Virus record (IMG/VR): IMGVR_UViG_2541047728_000005
DNA: 47,804 nucleotides
Reading direction: 5' to 3' (one strand)
Source of the DNA: a virus
Taxonomy: Duplodnaviria > Heunggongvirae > Uroviricota > Caudoviricetes
Part shown: positions 2,997 to 47,804 of the stretch, one piece after another
How the letters are laid out: each line of letters opens with the position of its first letter
Position numbering within the stretch: the stretch's first letter is position 1
Notes under the pieces: generated by a model
What the model saw: only the letters and a program-made list of their open reading frames with translations
What the model was told of the DNA's origin: nothing
Database searches by the model: none
Translations under genes and position numbers: made by a program

Positions 2997-3998
2997 TTAA
3001 TACCCATTAATTACTCTTCGGACATCAATCGAGGTGGTATAACCACTAGTCCCAATTGAATGCACAGCTTTCGATATAAGATATTTTCCAGAAAATGAAC
3101 CGAATCCCTCCAGATTTATAGTTACACCAGCTACCAATCTGGTGTCTCCAACCAATACTAAAGATCCGGTATTTTGATATCTATTTTTAAGCCGCAAAGC
3201 AGCCTTTGCCTTACGTTTTGCTTCATCTAAATTAGCTACCAGTTTTCTTATCTTAAGATTCGACCCTTCTTCTACGGATGGATCTACCCAAGTATACGAA
3301 AGCGACTTTCTTTTTTTAGGTACGCGATATTTGCACGTGCAACTTTTATACAAATCTGTAGATTGTGTGCTAAAGCTATATCTGATTATCTCATCAATAC
3401 CTAACGTAAGCGTAGCGATAGGATCTTTTTGCTCAAACATCTCTTGAGCAAATATTATTAATTGGCTATCAGTGACCTTTAACGACAACCCTTCATCCTG
3501 GCAAAGTCGATGGAGAAATTTTAAATCGCTTTCCTCCATTTGATCTTCACGCGCATAATATGGATTACTATCACCATCAATAAGAAACAACAGTTCAAGG
3601 TTAGCTAATTTAGCTATAGAAGTTGCTATATCTTTAAGAGTTGTTTTTTCCCATGCATTACTTTTTAAATCACGTCTAATGCCTGATGAAACAGGAACAG
3701 AAACAGCAGTTACCTCAACCACAGAAGGTGGTCCAGAGCAAGTTATGCCATCTACCTGGAATTTCCCGCACTCAAGGACGATTTGATTTATAGGCTTAAA
3801 GCTCAAATCAATAAAATCACCCTTTTTAGGTGTCCAGTCTCCAGACCATTTCCCATCATCATTTTTTAATATAATAGAAATATCATCGACCTGACCATCT
3901 TCATTATCTGTATAAGACATTGACAAAACATCAGGTGACATATGAGCGGTAATATTTACATTCTGATATATAACATCAAAAAGCGTTTTACGTAACAC
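2997..3998 (-). CDS. Tail protein D-like (P2 gpD / Mu gpP late control D family)
   Basis: 333-aa ORF downstream of tape measure and X-like gene, as in Mu/P2 tail operons. Confidence 0.55.
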   Translation of the reverse strand: MLRKTLFDVIYQNVNITAHMSPDVLSMSYTDNEDGQVDDISIILKNDDGKWSGDWTPKKGDFIDLSFKPINQIVLECGKFQVDGITCSGPPSVVEVTAVSVPVSSGIRRDLKSNAWEKTTLKDIATSIAKLANLELLFLIDGDSNPYYAREDQMEESDLKFLHRLCQDEGLSLKVTDSQLIIFAQEMFEQKDPIATLTLGIDEIIRYSFSTQSTDLYKSCTCKYRVPKKRKSLSYTWVDPSVEEGSNLKIRKLVANLDEAKRKAKAALRLKNRYQNTGSLVLVGDTRLVAGVTINLEGFGSFSGKYLISKAVHSIGTSGYTTSIDVRRVINGY

Positions 3999-4206
3999 TA
4001 TTGCGTCTCCACGGAGGAAAATTGTTTACTGATATTGGCATAACCGGAGCATCAGGAACTTTAAGAATAATTCCCGCAGAAAAAAGCACCGTAAAGCGGT
4101 GCTCAGTATTAGCATCAATAAGAAGATAAGACAGGTACTCATTACCATACAACTTTAAAGCGATACTATCCCATGAGTCCCCTTGAACCGTTCTATAATC
4201 ATCCAA
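3988..4206 (-). CDS. Small tail protein X-like (LysM-like)
   Basis: 72-aa ORF directly after tape measure gene; MDDYRTVQGDSWDSIALKLYG resembles LysM-type tail protein X. Confidence 0.45.
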   Translation of the reverse strand: MDDYRTVQGDSWDSIALKLYGNEYLSYLLIDANTEHRFTVLFSAGIILKVPDAPVMPISVNNFPPWRRNSVT

Positions 4207-7974: not shown

Positions 7975-9438
7975 TTATTCAGAAAACAAGTTCAGCAGAT
8001 AATCAGGATTATATTCCATGACGAACTCTATATCTCTGGCAGGTGAGAATGGTGTCATTTTTACATGGAATTTAACAATCCCGTCCATCAATGACGTAAT
8101 CGTGTTTTCAGACTGATCAAAGGTAACAACACCACCTGCAATATCCTGATTACCAGTGAGGCCGTTAAGCCAAATATTCGCACTAGTAACAATCGATTCA
8201 ATTAATCGACGGTTTGCAGGATTGTCTATTTTTGACCAATGCGAAAGAATTAACGTATTACCCACCCAGTTAAACATACGTCGGCAAACACGAAATGCGT
8301 CTTTGGGGTCTGTAGATGTTGGATAAATAGCATTACGGTTTCCCCATGATTTCCAACCATCAAAATTAAGGCTTGTTACAATCCCCTGTCCATTTAAGTA
8401 GTTTGCCTGGCTAATGTTAAGCCATACCTCACTGCCATCTTTACGTACAGCACCGTCCATCTGTAGTTTTATATTTGACGGAGAACGTGATGGAATATCA
8501 CCATACTGACTATCCAGCAAGCATGTTGCTGCCGCTAAATGGGTTGAGTGATGGTAAATATTGTCACCAAGTTTCACCATCGGCCAGCACACTGTCTGGT
8601 TAGCTGCCATATGATTATTGTTCTGCTTCCATTCAGGAACAGCAGAATAATCACTGATAGTAGATTTATCAGTCGGCGCATCGGTGATAGCTTCTGCTTT
8701 GAACAATTCACTAATCAGCGCAGCTTTAGCCGCCATTAGCTGGCCAACTTCACTATCAGAACTAAATCCAGGCGCAATCACTTGTCCTGGAACTAGTTTG
8801 AAGCGGGGATAAACATCCGACAGTAACTCAAGCCCCGTATTCGCTTTAGTGTTGGAATCCACACCACCAATAATATCGTTTTTAGTTACAGCCCCGGGAT
8901 CAAGATGCGTATAACTAACCTTAAGAGTGGCGTCTTTTTCAGTAATTTTTCCTCCGCTAATAGCGGTAATGACCGTATAGCCATTATCATCCAGCGCCAG
9001 TACATAATCTGTATCAACCGTTAACCCTGGAGAATCACCATCTGCTTTTTTCACAACAACAGATTTATATAAGACACCATCGTTAGAGAGCGTACCTTTC
9101 CCGCCAGAAAGTTTTACTACCTCATCAGTTACGTCTTTCTTATGCTTTGCTGGATCAAGCACATTGATAAATACAACTGGCGCAACACCATATATTCCAA
9201 ATGCGACTTTAATTACTTCGCTTAAAGTATATTTCTCGAAGTTTGTGCTATATCCTATTTTAGATACGGCCTCTGCGTATGTATAAGCAATGATAGGTTT
9301 ATTTACCGCTGAGGCTGGATCTTCTAACTGATTAACAGGAGTTGTACCAAATGCGACAATCAACCCAGCACTAACTTGTACTGGAGGAGTTATAGATGTA
9401 GCCAGCTCAGATATATAAATACCGTGGCGATATCCCAT
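7975..9438 (-). CDS. Tail sheath protein
   Basis: 487-aa ORF, size and position typical of Mu/P2-type contractile sheath, upstream of tube. Confidence 0.65.
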   Translation of the reverse strand: MGYRHGIYISELATSITPPVQVSAGLIVAFGTTPVNQLEDPASAVNKPIIAYTYAEAVSKIGYSTNFEKYTLSEVIKVAFGIYGVAPVVFINVLDPAKHKKDVTDEVVKLSGGKGTLSNDGVLYKSVVVKKADGDSPGLTVDTDYVLALDDNGYTVITAISGGKITEKDATLKVSYTHLDPGAVTKNDIIGGVDSNTKANTGLELLSDVYPRFKLVPGQVIAPGFSSDSEVGQLMAAKAALISELFKAEAITDAPTDKSTISDYSAVPEWKQNNNHMAANQTVCWPMVKLGDNIYHHSTHLAAATCLLDSQYGDIPSRSPSNIKLQMDGAVRKDGSEVWLNISQANYLNGQGIVTSLNFDGWKSWGNRNAIYPTSTDPKDAFRVCRRMFNWVGNTLILSHWSKIDNPANRRLIESIVTSANIWLNGLTGNQDIAGGVVTFDQSENTITSLMDGIVKFHVKMTPFSPARDIEFVMEYNPDYLLNLFSE

Positions 9439-22232: not shown

Positions 22233-22262
22233 AAAATAAAAAGCCCCGCGACACCGCGAGGC
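22233..22262 (-). terminator. Rho-independent terminator (minus strand)
   Basis: Minus-strand hairpin CCTCGCGG-tgt-CGCGGGG followed by CTTTTTATTTT. Confidence 0.6.
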
Positions 22263-22419
22263 TGTAAGAGTTACTTTCGATATAAATCAAGGCGCATTTG
22301 CTCCCGCTTAAGCCGAAAAGCCCTCTGCGCCACTAAGATGCGCCACAGGACACCAGCGATAACCACCAGCGAGATACAAAAACACACGGCCACAACCATC
22401 AGAAAAATGCCAACACCAT

Positions 22420-22909: not shown

Positions 22910-23180
22910 CCCATGTTCTCCTTTGTCTGGATGTAAAAAAGCCCCGGCAATTGCCGAGGCTCGTTGTTCGTTATCGTTACGGTTTAATGCTCGCGTCGTC
23001 CGGCGACAACTTCGGATTTGTATTTCAGGTCGCCCAGCAAGAATTGCAGTTTAAGCATCTTTGCCGCCGTGTAGTTTCCTGATTCCACAACCTCTTTCAT
23101 GAGGTCATAAACGGCCGCAACATCATCAGCCAGGAACTATTTGCGTTGCTGCTCAGTCGCACGTTTGAAGGAAATACGCA

Positions 23181-23450
23181 TCACTCATCATCTCCTGCCG
23201 CACATACAACCTCACAAAAAACATCAGCGGAATGTTTCTTTTTGAATGAATGGCGCTCAAAACCGCACTCAATATCAGGCGCAAAAACATCCACCACATA
23301 CGGTCTTTCAGAATGTTTGTTTTCCCAACGATAAACCGTAGTGACGTTGAAATGTTTTAACGCTTCACGGAACTCAACGCTGCCCGTCAGGTTTTTTGAG
23401 GTCAGGTATTGCAGGAGGTTTTTTACTACTTCACGGTCTTGTACTTTCAT
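23181..23450 (-). CDS. Hypothetical protein, first gene behind conserved promoter-leader cassette copy 1
   Basis: 89-aa ORF; ATG preceded by conserved CCGGAGATAACCCG leader/RBS. Confidence 0.5.
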   Translation of the reverse strand: MKVQDREVVKNLLQYLTSKNLTGSVEFREALKHFNVTTVYRWENKHSERPYVVDVFAPDIECGFERHSFKKKHSADVFCEVVCAAGDDE

Positions 23451-23457
23451 CGGGTTA

Positions 23458-23562
23458 TCTCCGGTTTAACCAGGGCGGGTATCGCTCGGTTTCGGGTATA
23501 ACCATAGGAAATTTTTTCCCACCTGTAAAGCACTTTTTATATAAATATATAATTATATAATT
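23458..23562 (-). promoter_or_regulatory. Conserved promoter-leader cassette, copy 1, with upstream palindromic TATA-rich array
   Basis: ~105 bp near-identical to 30406..30520 and 39875..39985; contains TTTACA-N17-TATGGT on minus strand and TATATAATTATATAA palindrome. Confidence 0.6.
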
Positions 23563-24144
23563 CTATGCCACTTGCCAGAGAGCATCATGCAACTGGATAC
23601 CTCCATTGCACTGGTTGCCCCAGCCATGCCAACCATCAGGTAAATCACCGCGAGCAAACAGCTCAATACGAGGAACATCACCTAACAGCCTTACCAGCTT
23701 GTCACGAACCACATCAGGCTTCCGAGAATGCTCCAGACGAGGCGATGTAAACGACTGAATGATCCCCGCATCAAGGCGGGTCGGCAATTTGCCTTTTACC
23801 GCAAACAAGCAATCTTCACTGTTTGCACGAGTCATATGCCCCATCCCCAGCTTATCTGGTTGTCGGCTACCACATTTGTTCCATGTGAAGCCCTTCATGG
23901 TCATAAGCCTGAATCCCCATGCTTTCACCACCAGCAACGCTTCTTCTGGCTGAGTCGGAACCCACCACATGGCCAACAAACACGATTCAGGATTAGCAAG
24001 CTGCCAGACAGGAATACGAGCAATATCCTCAGCTTTCATCGTTGAATACTTAAAACCAGCTCCACGATTCCCATCCTTACACTTATCTTTGTATTCCCAG
24101 GGGGGATCTGCATAAATCAGATTAAACAATGCAATTGCCTCCAT
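23563..24144 (-). CDS. DNA N6-adenine methyltransferase, MT-A70 family
   Basis: 193 aa with N-terminal catalytic motif IYADPPWEY. Confidence 0.8.
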   Translation of the reverse strand: MEAIALFNLIYADPPWEYKDKCKDGNRGAGFKYSTMKAEDIARIPVWQLANPESCLLAMWWVPTQPEEALLVVKAWGFRLMTMKGFTWNKCGSRQPDKLGMGHMTRANSEDCLFAVKGKLPTRLDAGIIQSFTSPRLEHSRKPDVVRDKLVRLLGDVPRIELFARGDLPDGWHGWGNQCNGGIQLHDALWQVA

Positions 24145-24452: not shown

Positions 24453-24528
24453 TGGTGGCCCCTACCGGATTTGAACCGATGACCGTGCGATTATGAGTCG
24501 CCTGCTCTAACCACTGAGCTAAGGGGCC
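24453..24528 (-). tRNA. tRNA with CAT anticodon, tRNA-Ile2 (lysidine)-like; could alternatively be Met
   Basis: Minus-strand GGCCCCTTAGCTCAGTGGTTAGAGCAGGCGACTCATAATCGC...GGTTCAAATCCGGTAGGGGCCACCA; cloverleaf with 7-bp acceptor stem, encoded CCA; 5' 42 nt match my recollection of E. coli ileX. Confidence 0.85.
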
Positions 24529-24667: not shown

Positions 24668-24700
24668 TATATATTTATATAATTATAGAAATATATATTA
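24668..24700. promoter_or_regulatory. TATA-rich palindromic repeat array (same family as parA-upstream repeats)
   Basis: tatatatttatataattatagaaatatatatta between spanin genes and tRNA. Confidence 0.45.
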
Positions 24701-24907
24701 CTTGGGGCAGTTGATTTCCCATGCCCTGTTATGAGCCAGAATATCTTTCTTTGTCTGGCGGTCCATAACATCGATATCGTGATCAGTCAGGTAGATGGGC
24801 TTTACCCAATCACAGGCGGTATCAACCACCACCGGGACGCTTCCACGACTCCCGCAGCTCGCGATCAACATCGTCATCAGCCATATGGTTAACACTCTGC
24901 TGTACAT
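24698..24907 (-). CDS. o-spanin (Rz1-like outer membrane lipoprotein)
   Basis: 69-aa ORF with signal peptide and lipobox LIASC; overlaps 3' end of i-spanin gene. Confidence 0.6.
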   Translation of the reverse strand: MYSRVLTIWLMTMLIASCGSRGSVPVVVDTACDWVKPIYLTDHDIDVMDRQTKKDILAHNRAWEINCPK

Positions 24908-26317: not shown

Positions 26318-26351
26318 AAAAAAAAAGCCCCGCCGAAAAAGGCAGGGCTTC
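26318..26351 (-). terminator. Strong rho-independent terminator immediately upstream of holin RBS (tR'-like)
   Basis: Minus strand: GCCCTGCC-tttttc-GGCGGGGC followed by nine T. Confidence 0.7.
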
Positions 26352-26690
26352 ATAAAGCAACAAATTACGCGGTAATCGCTTAACGCAGTTTTACTACGTT
26401 AAATGAAACACTACACCCAGTTACCATCTAAAACAAGGTTTTTCCATAAAAAAACCTTCATATCGTGGTTAATCGATCAATAAAAAAACAATGTTCAACT
26501 TTTTACCAACCGAACATCCCGACCAGGACTTCCATAATATTCGCCGATATGCCACTGCTTAAGTTGAGTAATCTTCTCCAACTTAGCTCCCATAGAGTCC
26601 AGTTTCTGCCATGTTTTCGGTTGTATGTGCTTCATTACCCGCTCTGAATATCTGAATACTGCTCGTAATCGCATGGATTCTCACTACAGC

Positions 26691-28677: not shown

Positions 28678-28976
28678 TCCTCATCTGCAACGGGGGTGTT
28701 CCGCTCCAGCACCTTGTCCGCATCGGCGATCAGGTTTGCCAGACTCTTGTCTGAAATCTTCGTTACCGGAGTCGTTGGTTGCTCAACCTGCCCGATAGGT
28801 TTTATCGTGCTCAAAAGGAGGCGACGGCGGGAAAGTGGTGCCCCACAACGACGGCCATCTTCCTTGCGATATGTTTCTTTCGGACCAACACACCAGGTTG
28901 TCGGCGTCTCGCGCAACTTCACTTTTTTCTCACCATCATTGGTAATGATTATTCCGGTATGTGTTTTGATGCTCAT
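28611..28976 (-). CDS. Hypothetical protein
   Basis: 121-aa ORF. Confidence 0.35.
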   Translation of the reverse strand: MSIKTHTGIIITNDGEKKVKLRETPTTWCVGPKETYRKEDGRRCGAPLSRRRLLLSTIKPIGQVEQPTTPVTKISDKSLANLIADADKVLERNTPVADEEWWQDFRAAMLELQERRREELK

Positions 28977-29275
28977 GCCACAGCCCCTCTCAACGGCTTA
29001 ACTTTGGCTAATAAGGTGTTAAACAACATGGAGTTAGGATTCATGCCAAATGGCAATTCCGGTTTAGCGGAGTAGTACAGGCAACCATTTATTTTCCTGG
29101 TTGTTATCTGTCCTTCGGCAACCATGCTTCTCAGTCTGCAACGCATAGAGTTCTGCGACACACCAATGTGCTCCGCGATTACGTCCACTTTTGAACATGG
29201 GTGATCGGTCAGGAAATTAATCACATCTTGGGGGTTAATAATTTTGCGTTTCATTGTCGAGGCGTCCTTATACAT
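28973..29275 (-). CDS. Putative winged-helix DNA-binding protein
   Basis: 100 aa; segment DVIAEHIGVSQNSMRCRLRSMVAEGQI resembles wHTH; preceded by TATA-rich array. Confidence 0.4.
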   Translation of the reverse strand: MYKDASTMKRKIINPQDVINFLTDHPCSKVDVIAEHIGVSQNSMRCRLRSMVAEGQITTRKINGCLYYSAKPELPFGMNPNSMLFNTLLAKVKPLRGAVA

Positions 29276-29301
29276 TTATATAAATATATAATTCTATATA
29301 C
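29271..29301. promoter_or_regulatory. TATA-rich palindromic repeat array
   Basis: tacatttatataaatatataattctatatac. Confidence 0.45.
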
Positions 29302-29320
29302 GGCGGGAGACATCCCGCCG
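29301..29320 (-). terminator. GC hairpin, possible terminator or protein-binding palindrome
   Basis: cggcggga-gaca-tcccgccg, 12 nt after stop of 29332..30399; weak U-tract. Confidence 0.35.
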
Positions 29321-29331
29321 TAGGCTTACTG

Positions 29332-30399
29332 TCAGGCTTTCAATAGCGATTCTTTCAGATATCGGGCATCAGCCAGGGCGTTTGGAGTAATCTTGCGAAC
29401 CCATGCATTACGGGTTGGACTCCACTTAAAGGCGCGTGATTTAAGCAGCGAACGAATGTTTGCCTCTGGTTTGCCAGGGAAATAAAACAGGATGCGGTTA
29501 TCCTCTGGATCTATCTCCATAGAAAAGCCGTCGTATTCTTCGCGCTGTGCTCCTGTTACAGACTTGACCGATTCAAGCTCCTTAATACGGCTCTGTAGTC
29601 GTTTGATTTCGGCGTTATTGTTGCTCAGTGCGTATGAAGGGAATCCGATGCGCCCACAGAAATCTCCGGCCAGTAACTCTTTGGCTTCGCTTTCTGTAAA
29701 CCTGAGATCGATTAATGCAGAAAGCTGCTGTATTTGGTCTTTTTTGTATTTGCGAATGGCCTTATTTGCGGCCTTCATTTTGACGTGTGACTTCATGCAG
29801 CCTTGCAGCTTACGAAGCAACTTAAATAGCGCATCAGGATCATCAGACGAAATTCCATTACGACCAACACCTGCGGCTTTGCTCTCGTAGTGTGATGCTT
29901 TACTTTCGCATTCAACAAACGCTTTTCTGAATAACGCATCAGCTTTAGACAAACGGCGGCGATGGCCTTTCGCGCTATAATGGTCAACTAAAATCGGCTG
30001 GCCTAACGGGATCACATCCAACAGGTCATGCGCTCGCTTATGCGCTACCGCACCTTCTTTTCTGGCTTTTTCTGCACGAGCAATATATCGGGCAAGACGC
30101 GCGTTCTGGCGTTCCTGATAGGTGTTTACGTAATCATCTCCGCGCTGCTGCTGTTCAAGCCATGCTTTGCGCAGATCTTCTGTTACATCCACCAGCTCCG
30201 CAGGGATACAACCAGTTTGGGCTTCATAAGAGTAACCATCCTCATAGATACGCCCATCGTCTTCAACAAAGAAAAAGGTTTCGTGCTCATCGCTTTTGAC
30301 CATACGACCATTAACATGGCGTAATAGGTAGCCAGTATCAGTGCTTAACAGGCTGTTAGGGTTGTTGATCCAGTCAGAAATAATTACTTGTTTATTCAT
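29332..30399 (-). CDS. Hypothetical 355-aa protein (possibly DUF3560-like), first gene behind cassette copy 2
   Basis: Track ORF starts inside conserved leader; start moved to ATG at 30399 preceded by CCGGAGAAATCTG. Confidence 0.5.
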   Translation of the reverse strand: MNKQVIISDWINNPNSLLSTDTGYLLRHVNGRMVKSDEHETFFFVEDDGRIYEDGYSYEAQTGCIPAELVDVTEDLRKAWLEQQQRGDDYVNTYQERQNARLARYIARAEKARKEGAVAHKRAHDLLDVIPLGQPILVDHYSAKGHRRRLSKADALFRKAFVECESKASHYESKAAGVGRNGISSDDPDALFKLLRKLQGCMKSHVKMKAANKAIRKYKKDQIQQLSALIDLRFTESEAKELLAGDFCGRIGFPSYALSNNNAEIKRLQSRIKELESVKSVTGAQREEYDGFSMEIDPEDNRILFYFPGKPEANIRSLLKSRAFKWSPTRNAWVRKITPNALADARYLKESLLKA

Positions 30400-30405
30400 C
30401 AGATT

Positions 30406-30520
30406 TCTCCGGTTTAACCAGGGCGGGTATCGCTCGGTTTCGGGTATAACCATAGGAAATTTTTTCCCACCTGTAAAGCACTTTTTATATAAATCTATAA
30501 TTATATATTTATAGATTTTC
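30406..30520 (-). promoter_or_regulatory. Conserved promoter-leader cassette, copy 2, immediately downstream of Q-like gene, with palindromic ATCTATAA...TTATAGAT array
   Basis: Near-identical to copies at 23458..23562 and 39875..39985. Confidence 0.6.
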
Positions 30521-30568: not shown

Positions 30569-30946
30569 TTACTCTCTTCGCTTTTTCAAATAGTCGACAA
30601 CATACGCCCTGGCTTTTGCCAGCTTCCGGCGATACTGTCTGAGGCTAAGAGAAAGGGCGTGGGCTTTATCAATATGCGGTGCATTTATGTCGAGGCCCCG
30701 AATCTCCCACGCCCCGTATTCAATTCGGACAACCAGCGCCGCAGTCTCATCAACTACCGTGAGGGCCGTCACCGCTCCCTCTATACTGGTTTCCAGTGAG
30801 TCATTTGGTGCGCCGCCCCCTCCGGTAAACTGGCAGCGCGTAACCATCATCATTTCTAACATCGACGCGAAACCGCTACGGGCGTTGCAGCCATTGCGCA
30901 CCCACAGCGCCCATAGCTCAAACAAGCTATCCAGATCGCGTCTCAC
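30569..30946 (-). CDS. Putative antitermination protein Q-like
   Basis: 125 aa; N-terminal MRRDLDSLFELWALWVRNG...SGF pattern reminiscent of 21/82-type Q; position after nin-like genes. Confidence 0.45.
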   Translation of the reverse strand: MRRDLDSLFELWALWVRNGCNARSGFASMLEMMMVTRCQFTGGGGAPNDSLETSIEGAVTALTVVDETAALVVRIEYGAWEIRGLDINAPHIDKAHALSLSLRQYRRKLAKARAYVVDYLKKRRE

Positions 30947-32938: not shown

Positions 32939-33056
32939 ACCACGATATGTGGTATTAAAACCACATATCGTGAGTTTTTCAATGGGCGAAACAAAAAATA
33001 ACCTTCTATTTGTGGTCCACCTCTCGTCTTACCATGTGAAAACCACTAAATGTGGT
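32939..33056. promoter_or_regulatory. Divergent operator/promoter region with three ACCAC-N5-GTGGT operators (32939..32953, 32960..32974, 33042..33056)
   Basis: accacgatatgtggt, accacatatcgtgag, accactaaatgtggt between divergent repressor and cro-like genes; minus-strand TTGAAA-N17-TTTAAT overlaps O2. Confidence 0.65.
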
Positions 33057-33093
33057 AATGTATAAATAACCCACCATTCACGATTGATGAGAC

Positions 33094-34221: not shown

Positions 34222-34241
34222 AAGCGGGCTAACGCCCGCTT
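34222..34241 (+). terminator. Hairpin after 33843..34217, possible terminator
   Basis: aagcgggc-taac-gcccgctt. Confidence 0.4.
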
Positions 34242-34245
34242 ACAT

Positions 34246-34346
34246 GATTATAGATTTATATAATTATATAAAACGCTTTTCATCCGCCAAAAAGTTGGTT
34301 ATGCTTACCTCGTTCTATAAATATAGATTTATAGAATTATATAACC
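34246..34346. repeat. Two TATA-rich palindromic repeat arrays upstream of parA (candidate centromere/operator)
   Basis: gattatagatttatataattatataaaacgc and ctataaatatagatttatagaattatataacc; related arrays at seven other loci. Confidence 0.55.
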
Positions 34347-34367
34347 AAACACATGGAGTCTCGACAA

Positions 34368-35021
34368 ATGACTATCTCTGTAGGTATTTTCAACGGAAAA
34401 GGCGGCGTAACCAAATCAACAATTGCCCGTGCTTTAGCAGTTGCTTATGCAAAGGCCGGCTGGAATGTATGCCTGATCGATATGGATGTGCTTAACGGAA
34501 CGGTAACGCGTTGGGTACAACGCAGAATGGCCAACAATATCGAACCTGCAATCGCGGCGCAGCCGTGCGGCACGCCATCACAAGTCCAGAAAATCATCGA
34601 ATCAGAAGTATACGACCTGGTTATCGTCGATGGCGGTGCCTACGCATCTGAATCAGTACCGAAGCTCTCTGAATTTCTGGATATGGTTATTTTGCCAACC
34701 AGATTCTCTACCGATGACCTAGAAACCACCGTTAACACAGCTCACGGCATCGTTAAAAAGGGTGTGCCAATCAAGAAAATTTGCATGGTGTTCTCAGGCG
34801 CGGCTGAAAACGAAGCCGACTACATTGAAGCCCAAGAGTACCTAGCTAATACGCCATACTTTGTTGTCGATAAGTACATTCCCCACAAGCCAGCTCTGAG
34901 CAAAGCTCAGGATAAGGGCTTAAGCCTCATTGAATGCTCATACGTTGCGCCACGCAAAAAGGCAGACGACGTTATTCAGGGGATTATCAACCAGCTTGAG
35001 GCTCTGACTACTGCCGCGTAA
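34368..35021 (+). CDS. parA: ParA-family partition ATPase (small, type Ib-like)
   Basis: Deviant Walker A GKGGVTKST; ~217 aa from GGAG RBS-supported ATG at 34368. Confidence 0.85.
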   Translation: MTISVGIFNGKGGVTKSTIARALAVAYAKAGWNVCLIDMDVLNGTVTRWVQRRMANNIEPAIAAQPCGTPSQVQKIIESEVYDLVIVDGGAYASESVPKLSEFLDMVILPTRFSTDDLETTVNTAHGIVKKGVPIKKICMVFSGAAENEADYIEAQEYLANTPYFVVDKYIPHKPALSKAQDKGLSLIECSYVAPRKKADDVIQGIINQLEALTTAA

Positions 35022-35056
35022 TATATAATTATAGTTTTATAGATTTATATAAGAGG
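35021..35056. promoter_or_regulatory. TATA-rich palindromic repeat array between parA and RHH gene
   Basis: atatataattatagttttatagatttatataagagg. Confidence 0.45.
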
Positions 35057-35064
35057 GGATACAC

Positions 35065-35313
35065 ATGGCCGGACCATCAAAACCACCAAAGAAGAACAGC
35101 AAAGGCGTACCGCCATCGATCGAACAACCGCAGGTTTTCGACCCGACTGAAACGCCAACCAGAACCAAATCAGGTGGGGCACAAATGGCGTTTAACGTCG
35201 ACCCTGAATTTAAACGCGAGTACAAAACGTTCGCCAGCTCAATGGATATGTCATTGAAAGAAGTGCTGACAAAATCTTTTGAGTTACTCAAGGCTCAATA
35301 CAACCAGAAGTAA
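35065..35313 (+). CDS. Ribbon-helix-helix centromere-binding protein (ParG-like)
   Basis: 82 aa; flexible basic N-tail then AFNVDPEFKREYKTFASSMDMSLKEVLTKSFELL RHH-like fold; AGAGGGG RBS. Confidence 0.55.
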   Translation: MAGPSKPPKKNSKGVPPSIEQPQVFDPTETPTRTKSGGAQMAFNVDPEFKREYKTFASSMDMSLKEVLTKSFELLKAQYNQK

Positions 35314-35534: not shown

Positions 35535-35557
35535 TAAAAAAGGCCCCCGAAGGGGCC
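35535..35557 (-). terminator. Rho-independent terminator oriented for minus-strand transcripts
   Basis: Minus strand GGCCCC-ttc-GGGGGCC followed by TTTTTTT; 7 nt after stop of small ORF 35564..35686. Confidence 0.65.
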
Positions 35558-35563
35558 TAATCG

Positions 35564-35686
35564 CTACTTGCTGCTAATGTTTATCGTCACATTCAGAGCG
35601 TTATCAGTAATCTTCCAACCCTCCCCATGTGGCGTAAACAAAGCCCCAGTAACAACGATAAAAATACACATACAGTATTTTTTCAT
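35564..35686 (-). CDS. Small hydrophobic peptide (40 aa), candidate type I toxin-like or small membrane protein
   Basis: MKKYCMCIFIVVTGALFTPHGEGWKITDNALNVTINISSK; AAGGG RBS 7 nt upstream; strong terminator immediately downstream. Confidence 0.45.
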   Translation of the reverse strand: MKKYCMCIFIVVTGALFTPHGEGWKITDNALNVTINISSK

Positions 35687-35917
35687 TGTATGGCCCTTAC
35701 AGGCCGTTTCACGGCATCCCCACCGACGAAAACAACGCGAGAGCAAGCACGGCTGCTTGTGCTTGCATGTACGGCAACGGAGAATCCTCCCCTAAAGTCG
35801 GTGCCCGGGTGCGAATCGGCGGGAAGGTCCACAGGTATTTTACGATTATTTTAAGATTAGTAATAGGAAAGAAATTAAACGAAAAAACTCGTTTATTTTC
35901 ACAAAATCAGTAACCTA

Positions 35918-36179: not shown

Positions 36180-36279
36180 GCGCCATTGGTGGACACTTTC
36201 CGAGCCGTAGCAAAATCTACGGTCGGGATTGGAACCCCGATAATCATCATGGCGCATACCGCGTTAGCGGTTTTTTTAT
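36180..36279 (+). ncRNA. Structured RNA segment ending at intrinsic terminator in antirepressor operon leader
   Basis: Hairpins CCGTAG-caaaat-CTACGG, CGGG-attggaa-CCCG, terminator ACCGC-gtta-GCGGT plus TTTTTTT at 36259..36279. Confidence 0.35.
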
Positions 36280-36442
36280 GCGTAAAGCACTGCTACACCC
36301 AAATTATGGTGGGGCGTGCGGGGGAGTCGTAAGACTCGCCGGATTCCATGGTGACCGGTAGTTCCAACCCTGTACGTCTCACCACCCAATGATTGGAACC
36401 AGACGGTGGTGAGTATCCTTAACCTTTAAGGGAACTATCACC

Positions 36443-36634
36443 ATGACAAACTTACCCCATGACTATTACGTCAACCTCGTAAAGATCCTTCTCAAGAAAG
36501 CCTCATACGCCGATAAATTCCGCCTAGCTGAAATCATCGAGCGCGAAGCTATGCGCATCGCCAGCAACGATAACGCTGTTTCTGACGCAAAAATCTCCCT
36601 CGTAACCAAAGTAGTTATGGGAGGTGCAAAATGA
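36443..36634 (+). CDS. Small protein preceding antirepressor (icd-like position)
   Basis: 63-aa ORF overlapping start of antirepressor gene (ATGA); AAGGGA RBS. Confidence 0.45.
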   Translation: MTNLPHDYYVNLVKILLKKASYADKFRLAEIIEREAMRIASNDNAVSDAKISLVTKVVMGGAK

Positions 36635-37773
36635 AAACGCTTCCGACCGTTAACACCCTACAGCCTATCTTGCATAACCAGATCCCCGTTATTACAACTG
36701 AACTTCTGGCGCAGTTATACGGAACAAAAATCAAAAACATTTCTGATAACTTTCTGAACAACACGACGCGATTCATAGCCGGAAAGCATTACTTTAAAAT
36801 TGAAAAAAACGAATTACGCGAGTTCAAGAACAGACCTGAAACAATCGGGTTAGTTGGTAAAAATGCCCGCTCCCTCATTCTCTGGACAGAACGCGGGGCT
36901 GCACGTCACGCCAAAATGCTCGAAACCGATCAGGCGTGGGATGTATTCGAACGGCTGGAAGACTGCTATTTCAGCCAGAACGCGCAAACGGCCGCGACCG
37001 TAACCGTCTCGCCAAACAATGCTCGTGAGGTTGTCGATACGCTCAACGCCAAACCGATGTTTTACATTAAAGTGTGCAACAACGAGCCACTCACAACCTC
37101 AGCCGATGTTGCCCAAGCATTCAGCACCACAAACAATTCCATCGTTATGGCCATCGATGCGCTACGCATTCCTCGCACGGCTGCGGCGCGTCACTTCTTT
37201 AAAGAGCAACGACCGCTGGAAGGAAGCGACCGCGAAATAACAATCTATCGCATGACAAAAGACGGATTTACCTTGCTCATGGAGAGCATCGACGGTCCAA
37301 GCGTGAAAGATATCAAGCTGGCCTACATTGAAGCCTTTAACGCTATCAGCAGCGTGTTAAAAACACAGTACGAGCGTGATCTGGCTAAACGACTGTACCA
37401 GGAAAAAACGATTATCCGCGCGGCAACAGAGCATAATCGGCTATTAACGGAACCGAACTACAGGAAGGAACTAATCAAGGCGTTTGACAAGGCAACAGGG
37501 AAAACCAAAGCGGCGCTAAATCTGCCAGCAATGACTCAGGAAAATGTGATATCAGCCTTACTTCTTGATCTGCTCAGAAACGCCAGAGCACTTATCAGCT
37601 TTGACGAAAACCTGAATCCTCAGCTCAAGCTACTACCACCGACAGGCAAAGTAGTCGACCAAGCTGATCACAACAGCATACTCAGCGTACTGGATGCAAA
37701 CCTGCCAGCCAAGACACTACAGGATCTGATAAAAACATGTGCTGATAAGCTGGCACAGAAAAGCAGACCATAA
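36631..37773 (+). CDS. Antirepressor-like protein (ORF6N/KilA-N-type N-terminal domain)
   Basis: 380 aa; N-terminal ITTELLAQLYGTKIKNISDNFLNNTTRFIAGKHYFKIEKNELREFK...LWTERGAARHAKMLETDQAWDVFERLEDCYF matches ORF6N-type antirepressor pattern. Confidence 0.65.
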   Translation: MKTLPTVNTLQPILHNQIPVITTELLAQLYGTKIKNISDNFLNNTTRFIAGKHYFKIEKNELREFKNRPETIGLVGKNARSLILWTERGAARHAKMLETDQAWDVFERLEDCYFSQNAQTAATVTVSPNNAREVVDTLNAKPMFYIKVCNNEPLTTSADVAQAFSTTNNSIVMAIDALRIPRTAAARHFFKEQRPLEGSDREITIYRMTKDGFTLLMESIDGPSVKDIKLAYIEAFNAISSVLKTQYERDLAKRLYQEKTIIRAATEHNRLLTEPNYRKELIKAFDKATGKTKAALNLPAMTQENVISALLLDLLRNARALISFDENLNPQLKLLPPTGKVVDQADHNSILSVLDANLPAKTLQDLIKTCADKLAQKSRP

Positions 37774-38956: not shown

Positions 38957-39382
38957 ATGAGTTCATCTGCTTTTGTCACCGTGGTCACTGGTGTAAGTGT
39001 TTTTGTTCTAGGCCAACTCATCGTCAAAGGAGCTATTGAGCCTTACATTTCATTCAGGGAACAGCTAGGGAAAATATCCAATCTGTTATTGTGTAACCAA
39101 GCAAAAATAGTGAATCCTGGCTCGAACTTAAAGCCAGAAATCATTCATGATCTAAAAGATTCCGCAGCACAGTTAATGGCGAAATATTCCACTTTACCTT
39201 TCTATATCAAAAAGTTACATATCGGCTTTCGTCTTGTTCCATCAGCCACCGAGATTCTTGGGGCAGCTCAAAATTTGAACTATATAGCGTCAATACATGA
39301 AGGTAAGACTGGGGAGAATCCATCTAAGCATCTCGAAGAGATTGGCCATATGCTCAAAATACCAACTACCTATTCAAGCTAA
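38957..39382 (+). CDS. Membrane-anchored hypothetical protein (N-terminal TM helix), divergent from HTH regulator
   Basis: 141-aa AT-rich ORF; N-terminal SAFVTVVTGVSVFVLGQLIV hydrophobic helix. Confidence 0.45.
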   Translation: MSSSAFVTVVTGVSVFVLGQLIVKGAIEPYISFREQLGKISNLLLCNQAKIVNPGSNLKPEIIHDLKDSAAQLMAKYSTLPFYIKKLHIGFRLVPSATEILGAAQNLNYIASIHEGKTGENPSKHLEEIGHMLKIPTTYSS

Positions 39383-39451
39383 CCCAATGTAAGTTATCGG
39401 CTTGCCCCACAATAAGTTATCTATCTTCAAACGCCCCCTATATTAACACTC

Positions 39452-39476
39452 GCAAAGTGTCATTTTGACACTTTGC
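39452..39476. terminator. Perfect 11-bp inverted repeat between convergent genes
   Basis: GCAAAGTGTCA-ttt-TGACACTTTGC. Confidence 0.4.
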
Positions 39477-39485
39477 GCATTGTGT

Positions 39486-39866
39486 TTACTTAACGAGGAA
39501 TAAAAATGGTTTATCGTTCGGCGGTGTAATCGGGGCTGGCTCGCTTTTGCTCATGCGATCAGTGTACCAGGCCAACTCCTTGTCAAAGTAAGCCTGATTA
39601 AAATAGGCCATGAATGTGGTTTCAAATCCATAACGACCGCTAATACGGAGCATCTGATTGCCGTTCTCTGTTTCCAGATATACCTGGGCACGTTCCTGAT
39701 TCTCCTTCAGCCAGGTTAAAGCCTCATCGCACGAGGACAAACGATACTCATCATCGTAGCCGTCATCGATGCGGCTTGAAGAAGAACGGCAAATCACGCC
39801 AACAGAACCAGCCAGGATAGTTTGAATTTTAAGGAAAGCGTTTTTGCGGATTTTAATCATGCTCAT
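39486..39866 (-). CDS. Hypothetical protein with N-terminal signal-like hydrophobic segment, first gene behind cassette copy 3
   Basis: 126-aa ORF; ATG preceded by conserved CCGGAGATAACCCG leader. Confidence 0.45.
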   Translation of the reverse strand: MSMIKIRKNAFLKIQTILAGSVGVICRSSSSRIDDGYDDEYRLSSCDEALTWLKENQERAQVYLETENGNQMLRISGRYGFETTFMAYFNQAYFDKELAWYTDRMSKSEPAPITPPNDKPFLFLVK

Positions 39867-39874
39867 CGGGTTAT

Positions 39875-39985
39875 CTCCGGTTTAACCAGGGCGGGTATCG
39901 CTCGGTTTCGGGTATAACCTTAGGAAATTTTTTCCCACCTGTAAAGCACTTTTTATATAAATCTATAATTATATAATTCTATGAG
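39875..39985 (-). promoter_or_regulatory. Conserved promoter-leader cassette, copy 3, with TATA-rich array
   Basis: Near-identical to 23458..23562 and 30406..30520 (single a/t difference in 'aaccttagg'). Confidence 0.6.
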
Positions 39986-41211: not shown

Positions 41212-41507
41212 ACATCTGTTTTGTTATCAATGAAGATTAACCCTAACCCAGCGAAGTAACACAGCAGCGCCCAGGCTGCATACGGAATGCTGGATCTGGA
41301 TGTGGACTCCTTTAACATCTGCCAGTTGCGAACATTGCGACTATCTTTTAAGCCTAGTTTTTTGGCTAACTGCGAGCCGCTCATTCCGGTCAGGCCAATG
41401 ACTGCCCGAACTTCTCCACATGTAGGAGATTCCCATTCATCCGCTTTTTTTAAACAAGCCGGATTCAACATTTTTAAAACAGTATCTTTATCCATAACCA
41501 TCTCCAT
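41208..41507 (-). CDS. Putative HTH DNA-binding protein
   Basis: 99 aa with IGLTGMSGSQLAKKLGLKDSRNVRNW HTH-like segment. Confidence 0.4.
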   Translation of the reverse strand: MEMVMDKDTVLKMLNPACLKKADEWESPTCGEVRAVIGLTGMSGSQLAKKLGLKDSRNVRNWQMLKESTSRSSIPYAAWALLCYFAGLGLIFIDNKTDV

Positions 41508-41859
41508 TTATTATATCTACGATGGTAGGAAATCTTTTCCTATGTGGCAATAGAAATTTACTACATTGCGTATAAGACAAGTTTTCTATGTCTAATAGGA
41601 AATGATGTTTCTTACATTTTATCGCGTTCTGATGGCTACTGTGTGCGTATTTATCGACGTTTATTGATAAGGCTCGCCCCTTCCTCCTGCAAAGCCCGGC
41701 CGTAGGCCTTATTTCGGCCTTATATAAATTGATTTTGTATAGTTCGAAACGTGCCGTTTCGAAAAGGATGATCAGGCTGCTCCATGCCTCCGGCAAGTGC
41801 CGGAGGAGGTATATTTGAGCGTAGCGACTCGAACCGGCGCGAGCTTTAGCTCGCTGCAA

Positions 41860-47606: not shown

Positions 47607-47804
47607 TTAGCACTCACCAATTAATCGTACATAAGACACAGGCTGGAAAGCACCGACAATACCAACACCACCTGAAACATTGGTTGCTTGCGAAAATGTA
47701 AATAGTGTTCTTGCCGACTTTGCACTCTTGATACTTCTTAACGTATCCTCCAACATCTCTTTCGAAGGAACAGCACCATCAAAAGAGTTAATCGAAGCAA
47801 CAAT
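47607..47804 (-). CDS. Tail protein I (gpI-like), 3' part continuing from 1..479 across the circular junction
   Basis: Reading frame from 479 continues through 47709 to TAA at 47609..47607; 47710..47804 duplicates 1..95. Confidence 0.65.
   Translation of the reverse strand: MVASINSFDGAVPSKEMLEDTLRSIKSAKSARTLFTFSQATNVSGGVGIVGAFQPVSYVRLIGEC

Follow-up and report, generated by a model that had tools for sequence, protein, structure and literature searches.

A circular phage-plasmid of Escherichia coli carries three copies of a cassette that is probably a promoter-operator-leader unit of the kil-kor type known from IncP plasmids and that, judging by homology, would be co-repressed by a KorC-type protein. 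By analogy with the IncP systems, the three unrelated genes that follow the copies would most likely receive a burst of transcription on entry into a new cell and then be shut off, and the cassette is most likely not a lambda-style late promoter. The co-repression reading is supported because several lines of evidence bear on it: the homology of the repressor, the homology of the promoter DNA, covariation within the putative operator, a signature of autoregulation at the repressor gene and the phyletic pattern of repressor and cassette.

The window, by which we mean the whole 47,804-nt stretch of DNA that was analysed, represents a phage-plasmid of ~47.7 kb that matches E. coli plasmid pMB9698_3 at 100% identity across the 24 kb that were aligned. 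The three-copy design is found in ~65-74 related E. coli phage-plasmids, and a diverged form occurs in other lineages; the diverged cassettes in these relatives were located by self-BLAST of their genomes.

Results

Three copies of one cassette

A repeat finder applied to the window returned a single family, consisting of three copies of 121 nt (23447-23567, 30395-30515 and 39863-39983) with 89-98% identity, and a 121-nt match of such quality within 48 kb excludes chance. The first-pass annotation had described a near-identical segment at three places, and both the repeat finder and pairwise alignment bear this out; the conserved leader that it quoted, CGAAACCGAGCGATACCCGCCCTGGTTAAACCGGAGA, is found in all three copies. 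The units, each ~119 bp long and on the minus strand, end at the ATG of unrelated genes:

23448..23566, minus strand: cassette copy 1, from the array through the ATG, heading the 89-aa gene at 23181-23450
30397..30514, minus strand: cassette copy 2, heading the DUF3560 gene at 29332-30399 and lying ~55 bp downstream of the Q21-like gene
39864..39982, minus strand: cassette copy 3, with the -10 TAAGGT, heading the 126-aa gene at 39486-39866

That the first genes are unrelated was likewise correct, as both the flanks and the products (89 aa, a 355-aa DUF3560 protein and 126 aa) differ. In the three-copy alignment, identity is unbroken from ATATAATTATA to CCGGAGA with two exceptions, a single base of the array in copy 1 and a single -10 base in copy 3, where TAAGGT replaces the TATGGT of the other two. 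Cassettes show 0-3 differences within genomes vs 7-13 between element types, and the within-genome similarity is, on sequence grounds, attributable to concerted evolution.

Each cassette is built, in order, of four tandem 8-bp AT-rich repeats, a sigma70 promoter, a palindrome in the promoter spacer, a leader hairpin and a Shine-Dalgarno (SD) sequence:

23535..23566, minus strand: array of copy 1, four tandem 8-bp units ATAGAATT ATATAATT ATATATTT ATATAAAA, ending 5 bp upstream of the -35
30483-30514 and 39951-39982, minus strand: arrays of copies 2 and 3
23501..23529, minus strand: sigma70-type promoter of copy 1, with TTTACA (23524-23529), a 17-bp spacer and TATGGT (23501-23506)
30449-30477 and 39917-39945, minus strand: sigma70-type promoters of copies 2 and 3
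23506..23520, minus strand: 15-bp palindrome of copy 1, GGGAAA-AAA-TTTCCT, in the spacer, its last T being the first T of the -10
30454-30468 and 39922-39936, minus strand: 15-bp palindromes of copies 2 and 3
23468..23491, minus strand: leader RNA hairpin of copy 1, with the two-part stem AACC..GCG / CGC..GGUU
30416-30439 and 39884-39907, minus strand: leader hairpins of copies 2 and 3
23458-23462, minus strand: SD sequence GGAGA, 3' of the copy-1 hairpin

The element at the upstream end, which had been read as a TATA-rich palindrome, is in fact the array of four tandem 8-bp units. As judged by its conservation, the cassette promoter is a real sigma70 promoter; across lineages, the 17-bp spacing and the -10 positions T1, A2 and T6 are invariant, -10 positions 3-5 are variable and the -35 is conserved as TTG/TTT. 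The in-frame ATG at 30453 that had been flagged as misleading sits inside the -10 TATGGT of copy 2 and yields an ORF at 29332..30453, with PGAP placing the start at 30399. For annotation, this means that an ATG within a -10 hexamer gives the DUF3560 gene a false 18-codon N-terminal extension.

The description of each copy as heading an operon was too strong, since a hairpin or terminator is found after every first gene:

22935..22962, minus strand: strong intrinsic terminator after the copy-1 gene
22238-22263, minus strand: second terminator, which together with that at 22935-22962 precedes the ParB-like, terminase, head and tail genes
29300..29321, minus strand: 9-bp GC-rich hairpin after the DUF3560 gene of the copy-2 unit, with an A/U-rich, non-canonical tail
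39451..39477: 12-bp hairpin separating the copy-3 gene from the convergent gene at 38957-39382, probably a bidirectional terminator

Searches of Pfam, PHROGs, NCBIfam and PADLOC with the 89-aa, DUF3560 and 126-aa first genes gave no informative matches, and none of the three has a recognisable function. Orthologs of the 126-aa copy-3 gene are found behind orthologous cassettes in lineage B.

Homology to IncP-1 kil-kor promoters

The alignment of the cassette with the kleA and klcA promoter-leaders of IncP-1 plasmids is nearly base for base. In pAKD15, kleAp reads AAAGTGC-TTGACA-GGT-TAGGGCATTTTGCCCTA-ATAT, followed by a hairpin leader and then ACCGGAGAAAGTCCGATG; its counterpart in the window reads AAAGTGC-TTTACA-GGT-GGGAAAAAATTTCCTA-TGGT ... 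AACCGGAGATAACCCGATG. The palindrome occupies an equal position in the window, in pAKD15 and in the IncP-1-like plasmid L043, whose promoter matches the regions upstream of klcA and kleA in 63 IncP plasmids. A distant BLAST search of plasmids with the cassette as query (E<=10) yielded nothing further but AT-rich noise.

With the klcA, kleA and kleC promoters of IncP-1 plasmids (RK2/RP4, R751 and pAKD15) the cassette shares AAAGTGC-TTGACA-GGT, a TAGG...CCTA palindrome that overlaps the -10, a hairpin in the leader and the start region ACCGGAGA...CCGATG. The likeness extends to a homologous repressor, 51% identical between the two systems, to the reuse of the unit before several unrelated small genes of one replicon, and to the placement of the repressor gene under an operator-bearing promoter (PMC10871194, PMC12365149). 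The two systems also differ. The host of the cassette is a myovirus-type phage-plasmid, not a conjugative plasmid, and two of the three units stand at the heads of phage lysis and morphogenesis regions. The inner palindrome bases are GGAAA/TTTCC in the window vs GGGCA/TGCCC in IncP-1, and upstream of the -35 four 8-bp AT-rich repeats take the place of the KorA operator. This operator, GTTTAGCTAAAC, is present at klcAp, kleAp and kleCp, and cooperation of KorB with KorA is documented at kleAp (PMC2665229); in the window it was not found beside the cassette promoter, and korA and korB genes are absent.

A KorC homolog and a fourth operator

The window encodes a candidate repressor of the cassette, whose gene has a promoter of the same layout:

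41214..41501, minus strand: KorC homolog, a 95-aa HTH protein, proposed repressor of the cassette
41522..41550, minus strand: promoter of the korC-like gene, TTGCCA-cat-AGGAAAAGATTTCCT-ACCAT, laid out as in the cassette and proposed as an autoregulation site
41527-41541: fourth palindrome, perfect, in the korC-like gene's own promoter

The HTH protein shares 51% identity over 80 aa (E 6e-23) with the annotated KorC of the IncP-1beta plasmid pAKD15 and 52% with P0174 of L043, which occupies the korC position in the gene order klcA-klcB-X-kleE-korA-incC-korB. KorC of RP4 regulates klcAp, kleAp and kleCp, and in pOXA-48 the KorC site lies between the -35 and -10 of the promoter of its own operon (PMC12365149).

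At promoters in the window, the palindrome is found in the three cassettes and in front of the korC-like gene itself. As in the window, the korC-like gene lies behind a promoter with the lineage's own palindrome in the relatives L031, L044 and L045 and, at 3180, in L040, and in lineage B it is the second gene behind a cassette. Lineages A, B and C have the KorC homolog together with the cassette, and five relatives that retain the Q-like gene (L018, L022, L037, L038 and L042) have neither. The alternative raised in the first-pass annotation, that the three copies form a set of co-repressed promoters, is thus strongly supported by the KorC homolog and by the fourth operator copy in its own promoter. 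The accompanying suggestion that an RHH protein is the repressor survives in part, in that the main repressor would instead be the KorC homolog, with an RHH-like ParA partner as a plausible second regulator acting on the array.

The candidate target of the KorC-like protein in the cassette is GGGAAAAAATTTCCT. The palindrome has the consensus AGGnnn-N3-nnnCCT, lies within the 17-bp spacer where it overlaps the first -10 base, and is present in the spacer of every copy and lineage compared, with covariation. Among 28 cassettes of three lineages its arms pair at 95.8%, vs 37-58% in shifted registers, and its covariation score is 0.389 vs 0.122, a value reached by 0 of 500 shuffles and stemming from ~3 deep lineages, hence from few independent events. 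Arm bases 5 and 6 change together, from AA/TT to CT/AG. The E. coli-type palindrome is imperfect at one arm base (GGGAAA instead of AGGAAA), and the palindrome is degenerate in some copies of lineage B and L041. By analogy with the plasmid promoters, a KorC-type operator is the best explanation for this element.

Aca proteins shut off anti-CRISPR promoters, and the KorC-like protein matches the HTH domain of AcrIF24 (E 1.4e-5) as well as Aca3 (E 0.016). Shared with these autorepressors is a logic in which a strong promoter with an inverted-repeat operator gives a burst followed by shut-off. The likeness of the proteins is confined to the HTH domain, however; the operator and the gene context are distinct and the window has no recognisable anti-CRISPR gene.

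AT-rich arrays and the ParA partner

The arrays of the cassettes hold the position that the KorA operator has in the IncP-1 kleA and klcA promoters. Four further arrays of such 8-bp units are found elsewhere in the window, bringing the number to seven, with a possible eighth site at 35022-35051, and a small protein that may bind them is encoded after parA:

34241-34277 and 34314-34350: two arrays flanking the par promoter, with units of the type found in the cassette arrays
29269..29305, minus strand: array without a KorC-type promoter, directly upstream of the MarR-like gene at 28973-29275
24668-24704: similar array upstream of tRNA-Ile and the MT-A70 methylase gene
35065..35313, plus strand: 82-aa protein encoded after parA (34374-35027), with a beta-alpha-alpha, RHH-like pattern; candidate array binder

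Every lineage has two arrays upstream of parA, and the sequence of the array unit and the predicted beta-strand of the ParA partner change together, a correlation that is confounded by phylogeny. The AF2 monomer of the 82-aa protein contains an extended segment and two helices, with a pLDDT of 69-84 there. A Foldseek search with this model returned no match, and searches of Pfam, PHROGs, NCBIfam and PADLOC gave no informative matches for the protein.

The partition regulators to which this arrangement was compared are omega of pSM19035, ParG of TP228 and the dispersed SopB sites of phage-plasmid N15. Like these and like KorB of IncP-1, it combines short repeats in tandem, present at the par promoter and also at further promoters of the same replicon, with a gene for a small putative RHH protein behind parA. 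The arrays are probably a second operator, bound by the RHH-like ParA partner. We also weighed whether the AT-rich array could itself be the promoter, or a QBE, and rejected both possibilities, since it contains no conserved -35/-10 pair and since the par promoter has such arrays as well.

The Q21-like gene and late transcription

Copy 2 does lie downstream of a Q-like gene, as the first-pass annotation had noted, with a gap of ~55 bp between them:

30569..30946, minus strand: 125-aa remote Q21-type antiterminator, last gene of the CI-controlled early operon

Its further proposal, that the three copies may be Q-dependent late promoters, was not supported. Here the cassette promoter would be constitutive or derepressed, and the Q21-like protein would load onto RNA polymerase paused in the leader and carry it through terminators into the lysis and morphogenesis genes. 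The 125-aa protein is indeed a remote member of the Q21 family, and the window resembles lambdoid PR'/qut regions (phage 21 type; AlpA of P. aeruginosa) in having a Q21-family gene as the last early gene, a promoter after it and terminators before the late genes. Copy 1 lies upstream of the terminase, head and tail genes, and the way from the cassettes to the late genes is interrupted by strong terminators (22935-22962, 22238-22263 and 26318-26351), yet a gene intervenes between cassette promoter and terminator. A better PR'-like unit is present at 26408-26436, with the terminator at 26318-26351 just before the holins.

The 8-bp tandem repeats of the cassette invite comparison with Q21, which binds direct repeats of 8-bp subsites; the QBE of phage 21 consists of two such subsites adjoining the pause element, within ~-40 to -1 (10.1101/651190). 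The cassette repeats, however, are located ~40-75 bp before the start, at about -44 to -75, outside the -40 to -1 that is sufficient for Q21, and they recur at the par promoter, where loading of Q would be senseless. What the promoter spacer does contain is no direct repeat but a palindrome whose arms show compensatory changes. Unlike PR'/qut, the cassette also has no conserved pause: in the cross-lineage alignments a -10-like TAnnnT element is not conserved in the leader columns of the initial transcribed region, GATAGT or TAGTGT being found in some copies only. Matches in a short-motif search for AAAC(C)GAG were mostly chance.

Nor are the gene and the cassette linked in relatives. A profile search of the genome contigs with the Q-like alignment found a single locus; an extra gene separates Q from the cassette in L021, L031 and L032, and the cassettes of lineage B head small accessory genes 6-9 kb from Q. 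The relatives that lack the cassette altogether, listed above, nonetheless have Q-like genes. The cassette is, moreover, multi-copy, and its homologs are plasmid promoters that need no Q, again unlike PR'/qut. We therefore regard Q-dependent late promoters as unlikely, and the cassette is probably acted on by some factor other than the 125-aa protein. As a caution for annotation, a real Q-like gene beside a promoter is insufficient to call PR'.

Upstream of the 26-kb morphogenesis block no recognisable promoter is nearer than copy 1, and copy 2 lies upstream of the lysis genes. Given this placement, an entry burst as the sole role of the cassette leaves the transcription of the late genes unexplained, unless another promoter or read-through provides for it. 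A dual lock, in which KorC gates initiation and Q, by modifying the polymerases from copies 1 and 2, takes them past the terminators, would make the late genes depend on the loss of two repressors. All of its components reside within one genome and, besides the PR'-like unit at 26.4 kb, no obvious promoter is found before the morphogenesis block. It is nevertheless quite improbable, as every objection to Q loading at the cassette applies to it and a Q-modified polymerase from the 26.4-kb unit could pass copy 1 and the terminators without the cassette promoter.

The leader hairpin

It is the comparative data that make the leader hairpin convincing, and not the folding of single sequences, which gives a weak signal (z -0.6 to -2.2). 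In the comparative alignment 96.8% of cells are paired vs 10-40% in shifted registers, with 18 double-change cells and seven G.U cells, and the hairpin consensus still holds after the IncP leaders are added. The hairpin has thus been kept from IncP-1 to phage-plasmids, and its function is apparently undescribed; it probably stabilises the mRNA or tunes translation. We dropped the idea that the leader is the target of a trans-acting RNA, such as the c4/isrK immunity RNAs encoded at 36.2-36.4 kb, or falls into an established class of cis-regulatory RNA, which is very improbable and largely refuted: genes for C4 and isrK RNAs are present in the window, the leader sequence is identical in all three copies and the energy of the isrK-leader duplex marginally beats shuffles (fraction 0.043), but the c4-leader duplex is no better than shuffles, no stretch antisense to the leader exceeds 11 nt anywhere in the window, homologous leaders occur in IncP-1 plasmids without C4/isrK RNAs, and an Rfam scan of the whole window placed no family at the cassettes, its gathering-score matches being only ryfA, C4, isrK and one tRNA.

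Discussion

The preferred reading, co-repression of the three cassettes by a KorC-type protein, leads to a mechanism modelled on the IncP systems. A dimer of the KorC homolog (41214-41501) would bind the palindrome and block RNA polymerase, and the same operator in the promoter of the korC-like gene would let the repressor set its own level. In the established plasmid-prophage, the 89-aa, DUF3560 and 126-aa genes would in this way be held low together. When the DNA enters a repressor-free cell, the three genes would be expressed in a burst that lasts until KorC accumulates, which would match the behaviour of RP4 klcA and kleA after conjugation; klcA, which is under KorA and KorC repression, is induced ~120-220-fold in transconjugants (PMC7314908). 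The AT-rich repeats upstream of the -35 would serve as a second operator for the RHH-like ParA partner, replacing the KorA operator, and the two-part hairpin of the leader, positioned just before the SD sequence, would act on the stability of the mRNA or on its translation. Every unit would terminate at the hairpin or terminator past its first gene.

A wider reading is possible, though we hold it only tentatively and think it rather doubtful. The cassette may be a mobile entry-burst module common to conjugative plasmids and phage-plasmids, pairing an operator for a KorC/Aca-like autorepressor with the conserved 5' leader hairpin, one that flags the next gene as an establishment or anti-defence gene and that also gates virion production by means of KorC, the RHH arrays and the Q21-like protein. 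The genes flagged in this manner would be the 89-aa, DUF3560 and 126-aa genes here and those for proteins of 103, 86, 98 and 191 aa in lineage B. If this were true, a kil-kor circuit would have been wired before the lysis and morphogenesis regions of a phage. By analogy with klcA, the three first genes of the window may have roles in establishment or anti-defence.

Clinical Enterobacteria commonly harbour phage-plasmids, whose regulation is essentially unstudied beyond P1 and N15. In the widespread ~48-kb E. coli family described here, one small repressor is predicted to control four promoters. That such a family has an IncP-type repressor, operator and mRNA leader indicates that regulatory modules, beyond genes, move between conjugative plasmids and phages.

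The cassette and the element that carries it

A repeat finder run on the window returned a single family of three 121-nt copies (23447-23567, 30395-30515 and 39863-39983), and alignment of the copies bears out the three near-identical segments described in the first-pass annotation. From the AT-rich part to CCGGAGA the minus-strand sequences of all three are identical, bar one array base and one -10 base, the latter in copy 3, which reads TAAGGT. The first genes are indeed unrelated, as had been claimed: the copies stop at the ATG of genes for an 89-aa protein, a 355-aa DUF3560 protein and a 126-aa protein, and the in-frame ATG noted at 30453 is the ATG within the -10 hexamer TATGGT.

Anatomy of copy 1
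23535-23566, minus strand: four tandem 8-bp AT-rich units, ATAGAATT ATATAATT ATATATTT ATATAAAA
23530-23534, minus strand: linker, AGTGC
23524-23529, minus strand: -35, TTTACA
23521-23523, minus strand: gap, GGT
23506-23520, minus strand: 15-bp palindrome, GGGAAA-AAA-TTTCCT (its final T also begins the -10)
23501-23506, minus strand: -10, TATGGT
23468-23491, minus strand: leader hairpin, AACCGAGCGATACCCGCCCTGGTT
23458-23462, minus strand: ribosome-binding sequence (SD), GGAGA
23448-23450, minus strand: start codon, ATG

The first 95 bases of the window equal the last 95 (1-95 and 47710-47804), and because this perfect terminal direct repeat is an assembly overlap the element is circular, of ~47.7 kb (about 47,709 bp). 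On it are repA, parA and a gene for a CI-like repressor, along with a P1-type c4/isrK-antirepressor region and a full myovirus structural module, which together make it a phage-plasmid. It is 100% identical to the E. coli plasmid pMB9698_3 over the 24 kb compared. The three-copy design is found in 65 PLSDB plasmids, in three Yersinia phages and in 74 complete E. coli genomes, with a median of 3 places per genome.

Other features were seen in the window. The P1-type immI-like region (36204-36389 and 36443-37773, plus strand; 35536-35832, minus strand) comprises an isrK-like RNA (70 bits) and a C4 antisense RNA (84 bits), then a 63-aa ORF and an ORF6N/Rha-type antirepressor gene, with a ryfA-like RNA (142 bits) on the opposite strand upstream. 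The tape-measure gene (4199-6991) holds three 42-nt repeats at 4650-4931, exactly 120 nt apart, which encode internal protein repeats. The tRNA gene at 24456-24528 (minus strand) is tRNA-Ile by PGAP in pMB9698_3 and tRNA-Met in a Yersinia phage record, a discrepancy that is probably CAU-anticodon ambiguity.

Conservation of the cassette among relatives

Relatives were gathered through the 125-aa Q-like protein first and through a small HTH protein later, and self-comparison of each showed that a multi-copy cassette is a family trait.

Lineages, with cassette copies and palindrome, array unit, and predicted beta-strand of the protein after parA
Lineage A (E. coli, Klebsiella, Salmonella and Enterobacter elements): 2-3 copies, AGGAAA-N3-TTTCCT; TATAkAww; QMAFNV
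Lineage B (L020, L033-36, L041): 2-4 copies, AGGACT-AAA-AGTCCT; kATATAww; QLLLRL
Lineage C (L040): 2 copies, AGGTC-AAAAA-GACCT; ATCTTTAA; LMNFNV
Lineage D: AATAAATA; PLNFNV

All cassette versions can be aligned over their entire length (alignment A4), with the TTG/TTT of the -35, the 17-bp spacing and the outer AGG...CCT of the palindrome kept. Conservation of the -10 falls at exactly positions 1, 2 and 6 (TAnnnT), a pattern that, judged from the alignment, is the signature of a genuine sigma70 promoter. The palindrome arms change compensatorily, and the leader forms a covarying two-part stem, with outer variants AACC/GGUU, GACC/GGUC and GGCC/GGCC and inner variants GCGA/UCGC, AGCA/UGCU, GACA/UGUC and GACG/CGUC. 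In counts that span about three deep lineages plus the variation within them, with independent events modest in number, 95.8% of palindrome cells are complementary versus 37-58% in shifted registers (covariation score 0.389 versus 0.122 in shuffles, reached by none of 500), and 96.8% of leader-stem cells are paired versus 10-40% when shifted, with 18 double-change and 7 G.U cells. G.U cells make sense only in sense-strand RNA.

Copies within a genome differ at 0-3 of about 81 positions, as in concerted evolution, and E. coli-type and Klebsiella/Salmonella-type cassettes differ from each other at 7-13. The -10 polymorphism TATGGT/TAAGGT falls in different copies by strain (window, L001, L003-L017, L024-L030, L039); TAAGGT is found in copy 3 of the window, whereas Yersinia phage vB_YpM_39 has it in its copies 1 and 2. 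Such a shifting position suggests that gene conversion acts among the copies or that graded promoter strengths are selected for. In the cassette-less relative L018 (3480-3560), a small gene lies behind TTGACC...TACTGTTTAAAAACACAGTA with a LexA-box-like site (CTGT-N8-ACAG), suggesting that in this relative one accessory gene is directly controlled by SOS.

A gene for a proposed KorC-like repressor shares the palindrome

Looking for the palindrome elsewhere gave one perfect extra site, AGGAAA-AGA-TTTCCT, at 41527-41541, within a minus-strand promoter of cassette layout (TTGCCA-cat-palindrome-ACCAT) directly 5' of a 95-aa HTH gene (41214-41501). Homologs of this gene occur in every cassette-bearing lineage, always behind a promoter with that lineage's own palindrome, and are absent from the cassette-less relatives examined. 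A 52%-identical homolog lies between klcB and kleE, the korC position, in an IncP-1-type plasmid, and the window protein is 51% identical (E 6e-23) to the annotated KorC of the IncP-1beta plasmid pAKD15. The core of the IncP kleA and klcA promoters (AAAGTGC-TTGACA-GGT-TAGGGCATTTTGCCCTA-ATAT) aligns nearly base for base with the cassette and is followed by a leader with a homologous two-part hairpin and then ACCGGAGAAAGTCCGATG; many IncP plasmids have the same promoter-leader unit before both klcA and kleA.

In RP4, KorC regulates the klcA, kleA and kleC promoters, and in pOXA-48 the promoter of the korC operon has a KorC site between its -35 and -10 (PMC12365149). Kor regulators repress their own expression, and kil genes, if unrepressed, harm the host (PMC10871194); of the RP4 genes, klcA, which is under KorA and KorC repression, shows the strongest zygotic induction (PMC7314908).

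PDB matches of the KorC-like protein are Aca3 (E 0.016) and, in the anti-CRISPR AcrIF24, the C-terminal HTH domain (E 1.4e-5); they link the KorC family to Aca-type autorepressors.

AT-rich arrays and the ParA partner

In IncP-1 the KorA operator GTTTAGCTAAA is immediately 5' of AGTGC-TTGACA, whereas the phage-plasmid has the four 8-bp repeats there instead. Arrays of the same type recur in the window, two before parA, one before a MarR-like gene and another before tRNA-Ile and an MT-A70 methylase gene, and the par promoter always has arrays of that unit on either side. The array unit differs by lineage, and the predicted beta-strand of the small protein whose gene follows parA changes with it, a correspondence confounded by phylogeny. 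This protein has a beta-alpha-alpha pattern and is a candidate RHH protein, though Foldseek gave no match for it. On this reasoning it is about as likely as not that the array serves the ParA partner as operator or centromere site, with that partner acting as a second repressor in the manner of KorA/KorB.

Arrays without a KorC-type promoter then share a translation-start context, CCTCGACAATG or TCTCGACAAATG (window 29269-29305 and 34314-34373; L020, of lineage B, 6331-6388), which precedes the MarR-like gene, parA and the lineage B gene after Q. Array and start context may form a second, shorter reused module.

The CI operators of the 32.9-33.1 kb intergenic region have another motif than the arrays, ACCAC-N5-GTGGT. 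Three such CI/Cro-type operators lie at 32940-33085, between the CI-like gene and the early operon, and a related half-degenerate site, TTAACCACGATATGAAGGT, is found at 26465-26482 (minus strand), just 5' of a PR'-like promoter before the holins.

The Q-like protein and its candidate loading site

The 125-aa protein alone gave no Pfam match. Q21 chains are the top Foldseek matches of its AF2 model, a profile of 102 family members finds one significant sequence in the PDB, Q21 (E 2e-4), and PF06530 is touched by 16 of the members; these results point to the Q21 family, so the gene was rightly called Q-like at first pass. The accompanying proposal that the cassettes are Q-dependent promoters fared differently: the cassette does not behave as a Q loading site. 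Its spacer holds a palindrome and not two direct 8-bp subsites, no -10-like pause element is kept across lineages in the first transcribed bases, other genes separate it from Q in L021, L031 and L032, in lineage B it is 6-9 kb off, and L018, L022, L037, L038 and L042 have Q but no cassette. A better candidate for Q21-like loading, from its sequence layout, is a unit within the ~390 bp of non-coding DNA that precede the holins; it is also kept in the Klebsiella relative L021, at 8250-8470.

PR'-like unit
26408-26436, minus strand: PR'-like promoter, TTGTTT-N17-TAGTGT, its spacer holding two direct 8-mers, GGTAACTG and GGTGTAGT
between promoter and terminator, minus strand: 7-bp hairpin, AACGTAG...CTGCGTT
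26318-26351, minus strand: terminator, the strongest of the region, about 60-90 nt downstream of the promoter

Q-modified polymerase that starts at 26.4 kb could transcribe the lysis genes and copy 1, pass the 22.9-kb and 22.2-kb terminators and go on to the structural genes.

The Q21-like protein (30569-30946, minus strand) also has a weak match (E 2.5e-4) to NCBIfam NF051483, 'PA0613 family', a P. aeruginosa pyocin-cluster small protein. The 50% cluster library contains about 130 of its remote homologs, 110-165 aa long, which make up a sizeable family of unannotated candidate antiterminators.

A model for cassette control

We propose that a dimer of the KorC homolog binds the palindrome and would occlude the spacer and -10 at four promoters, its own and those of the three cassettes. 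Once the plasmid is established, the three first genes would be held low, and on entry into a naive cell a burst of first-gene expression would last until repressor builds up. The units are short, since each first gene has a terminator or hairpin after it. The array would provide a second, partition-linked input, and the hairpin would work on the mRNA, through stability or translation.

KorC regulons are already known in IncP-1, IncU and IncL/M plasmids, and the conserved leader hairpin appears to be previously undescribed. New here are a KorC regulon that a phage-plasmid family carries as a cassette in three copies evolving in concert, partition-type repeats in place of the KorA operator, and the setting of two of the copies where the lysis and morphogenesis regions begin.
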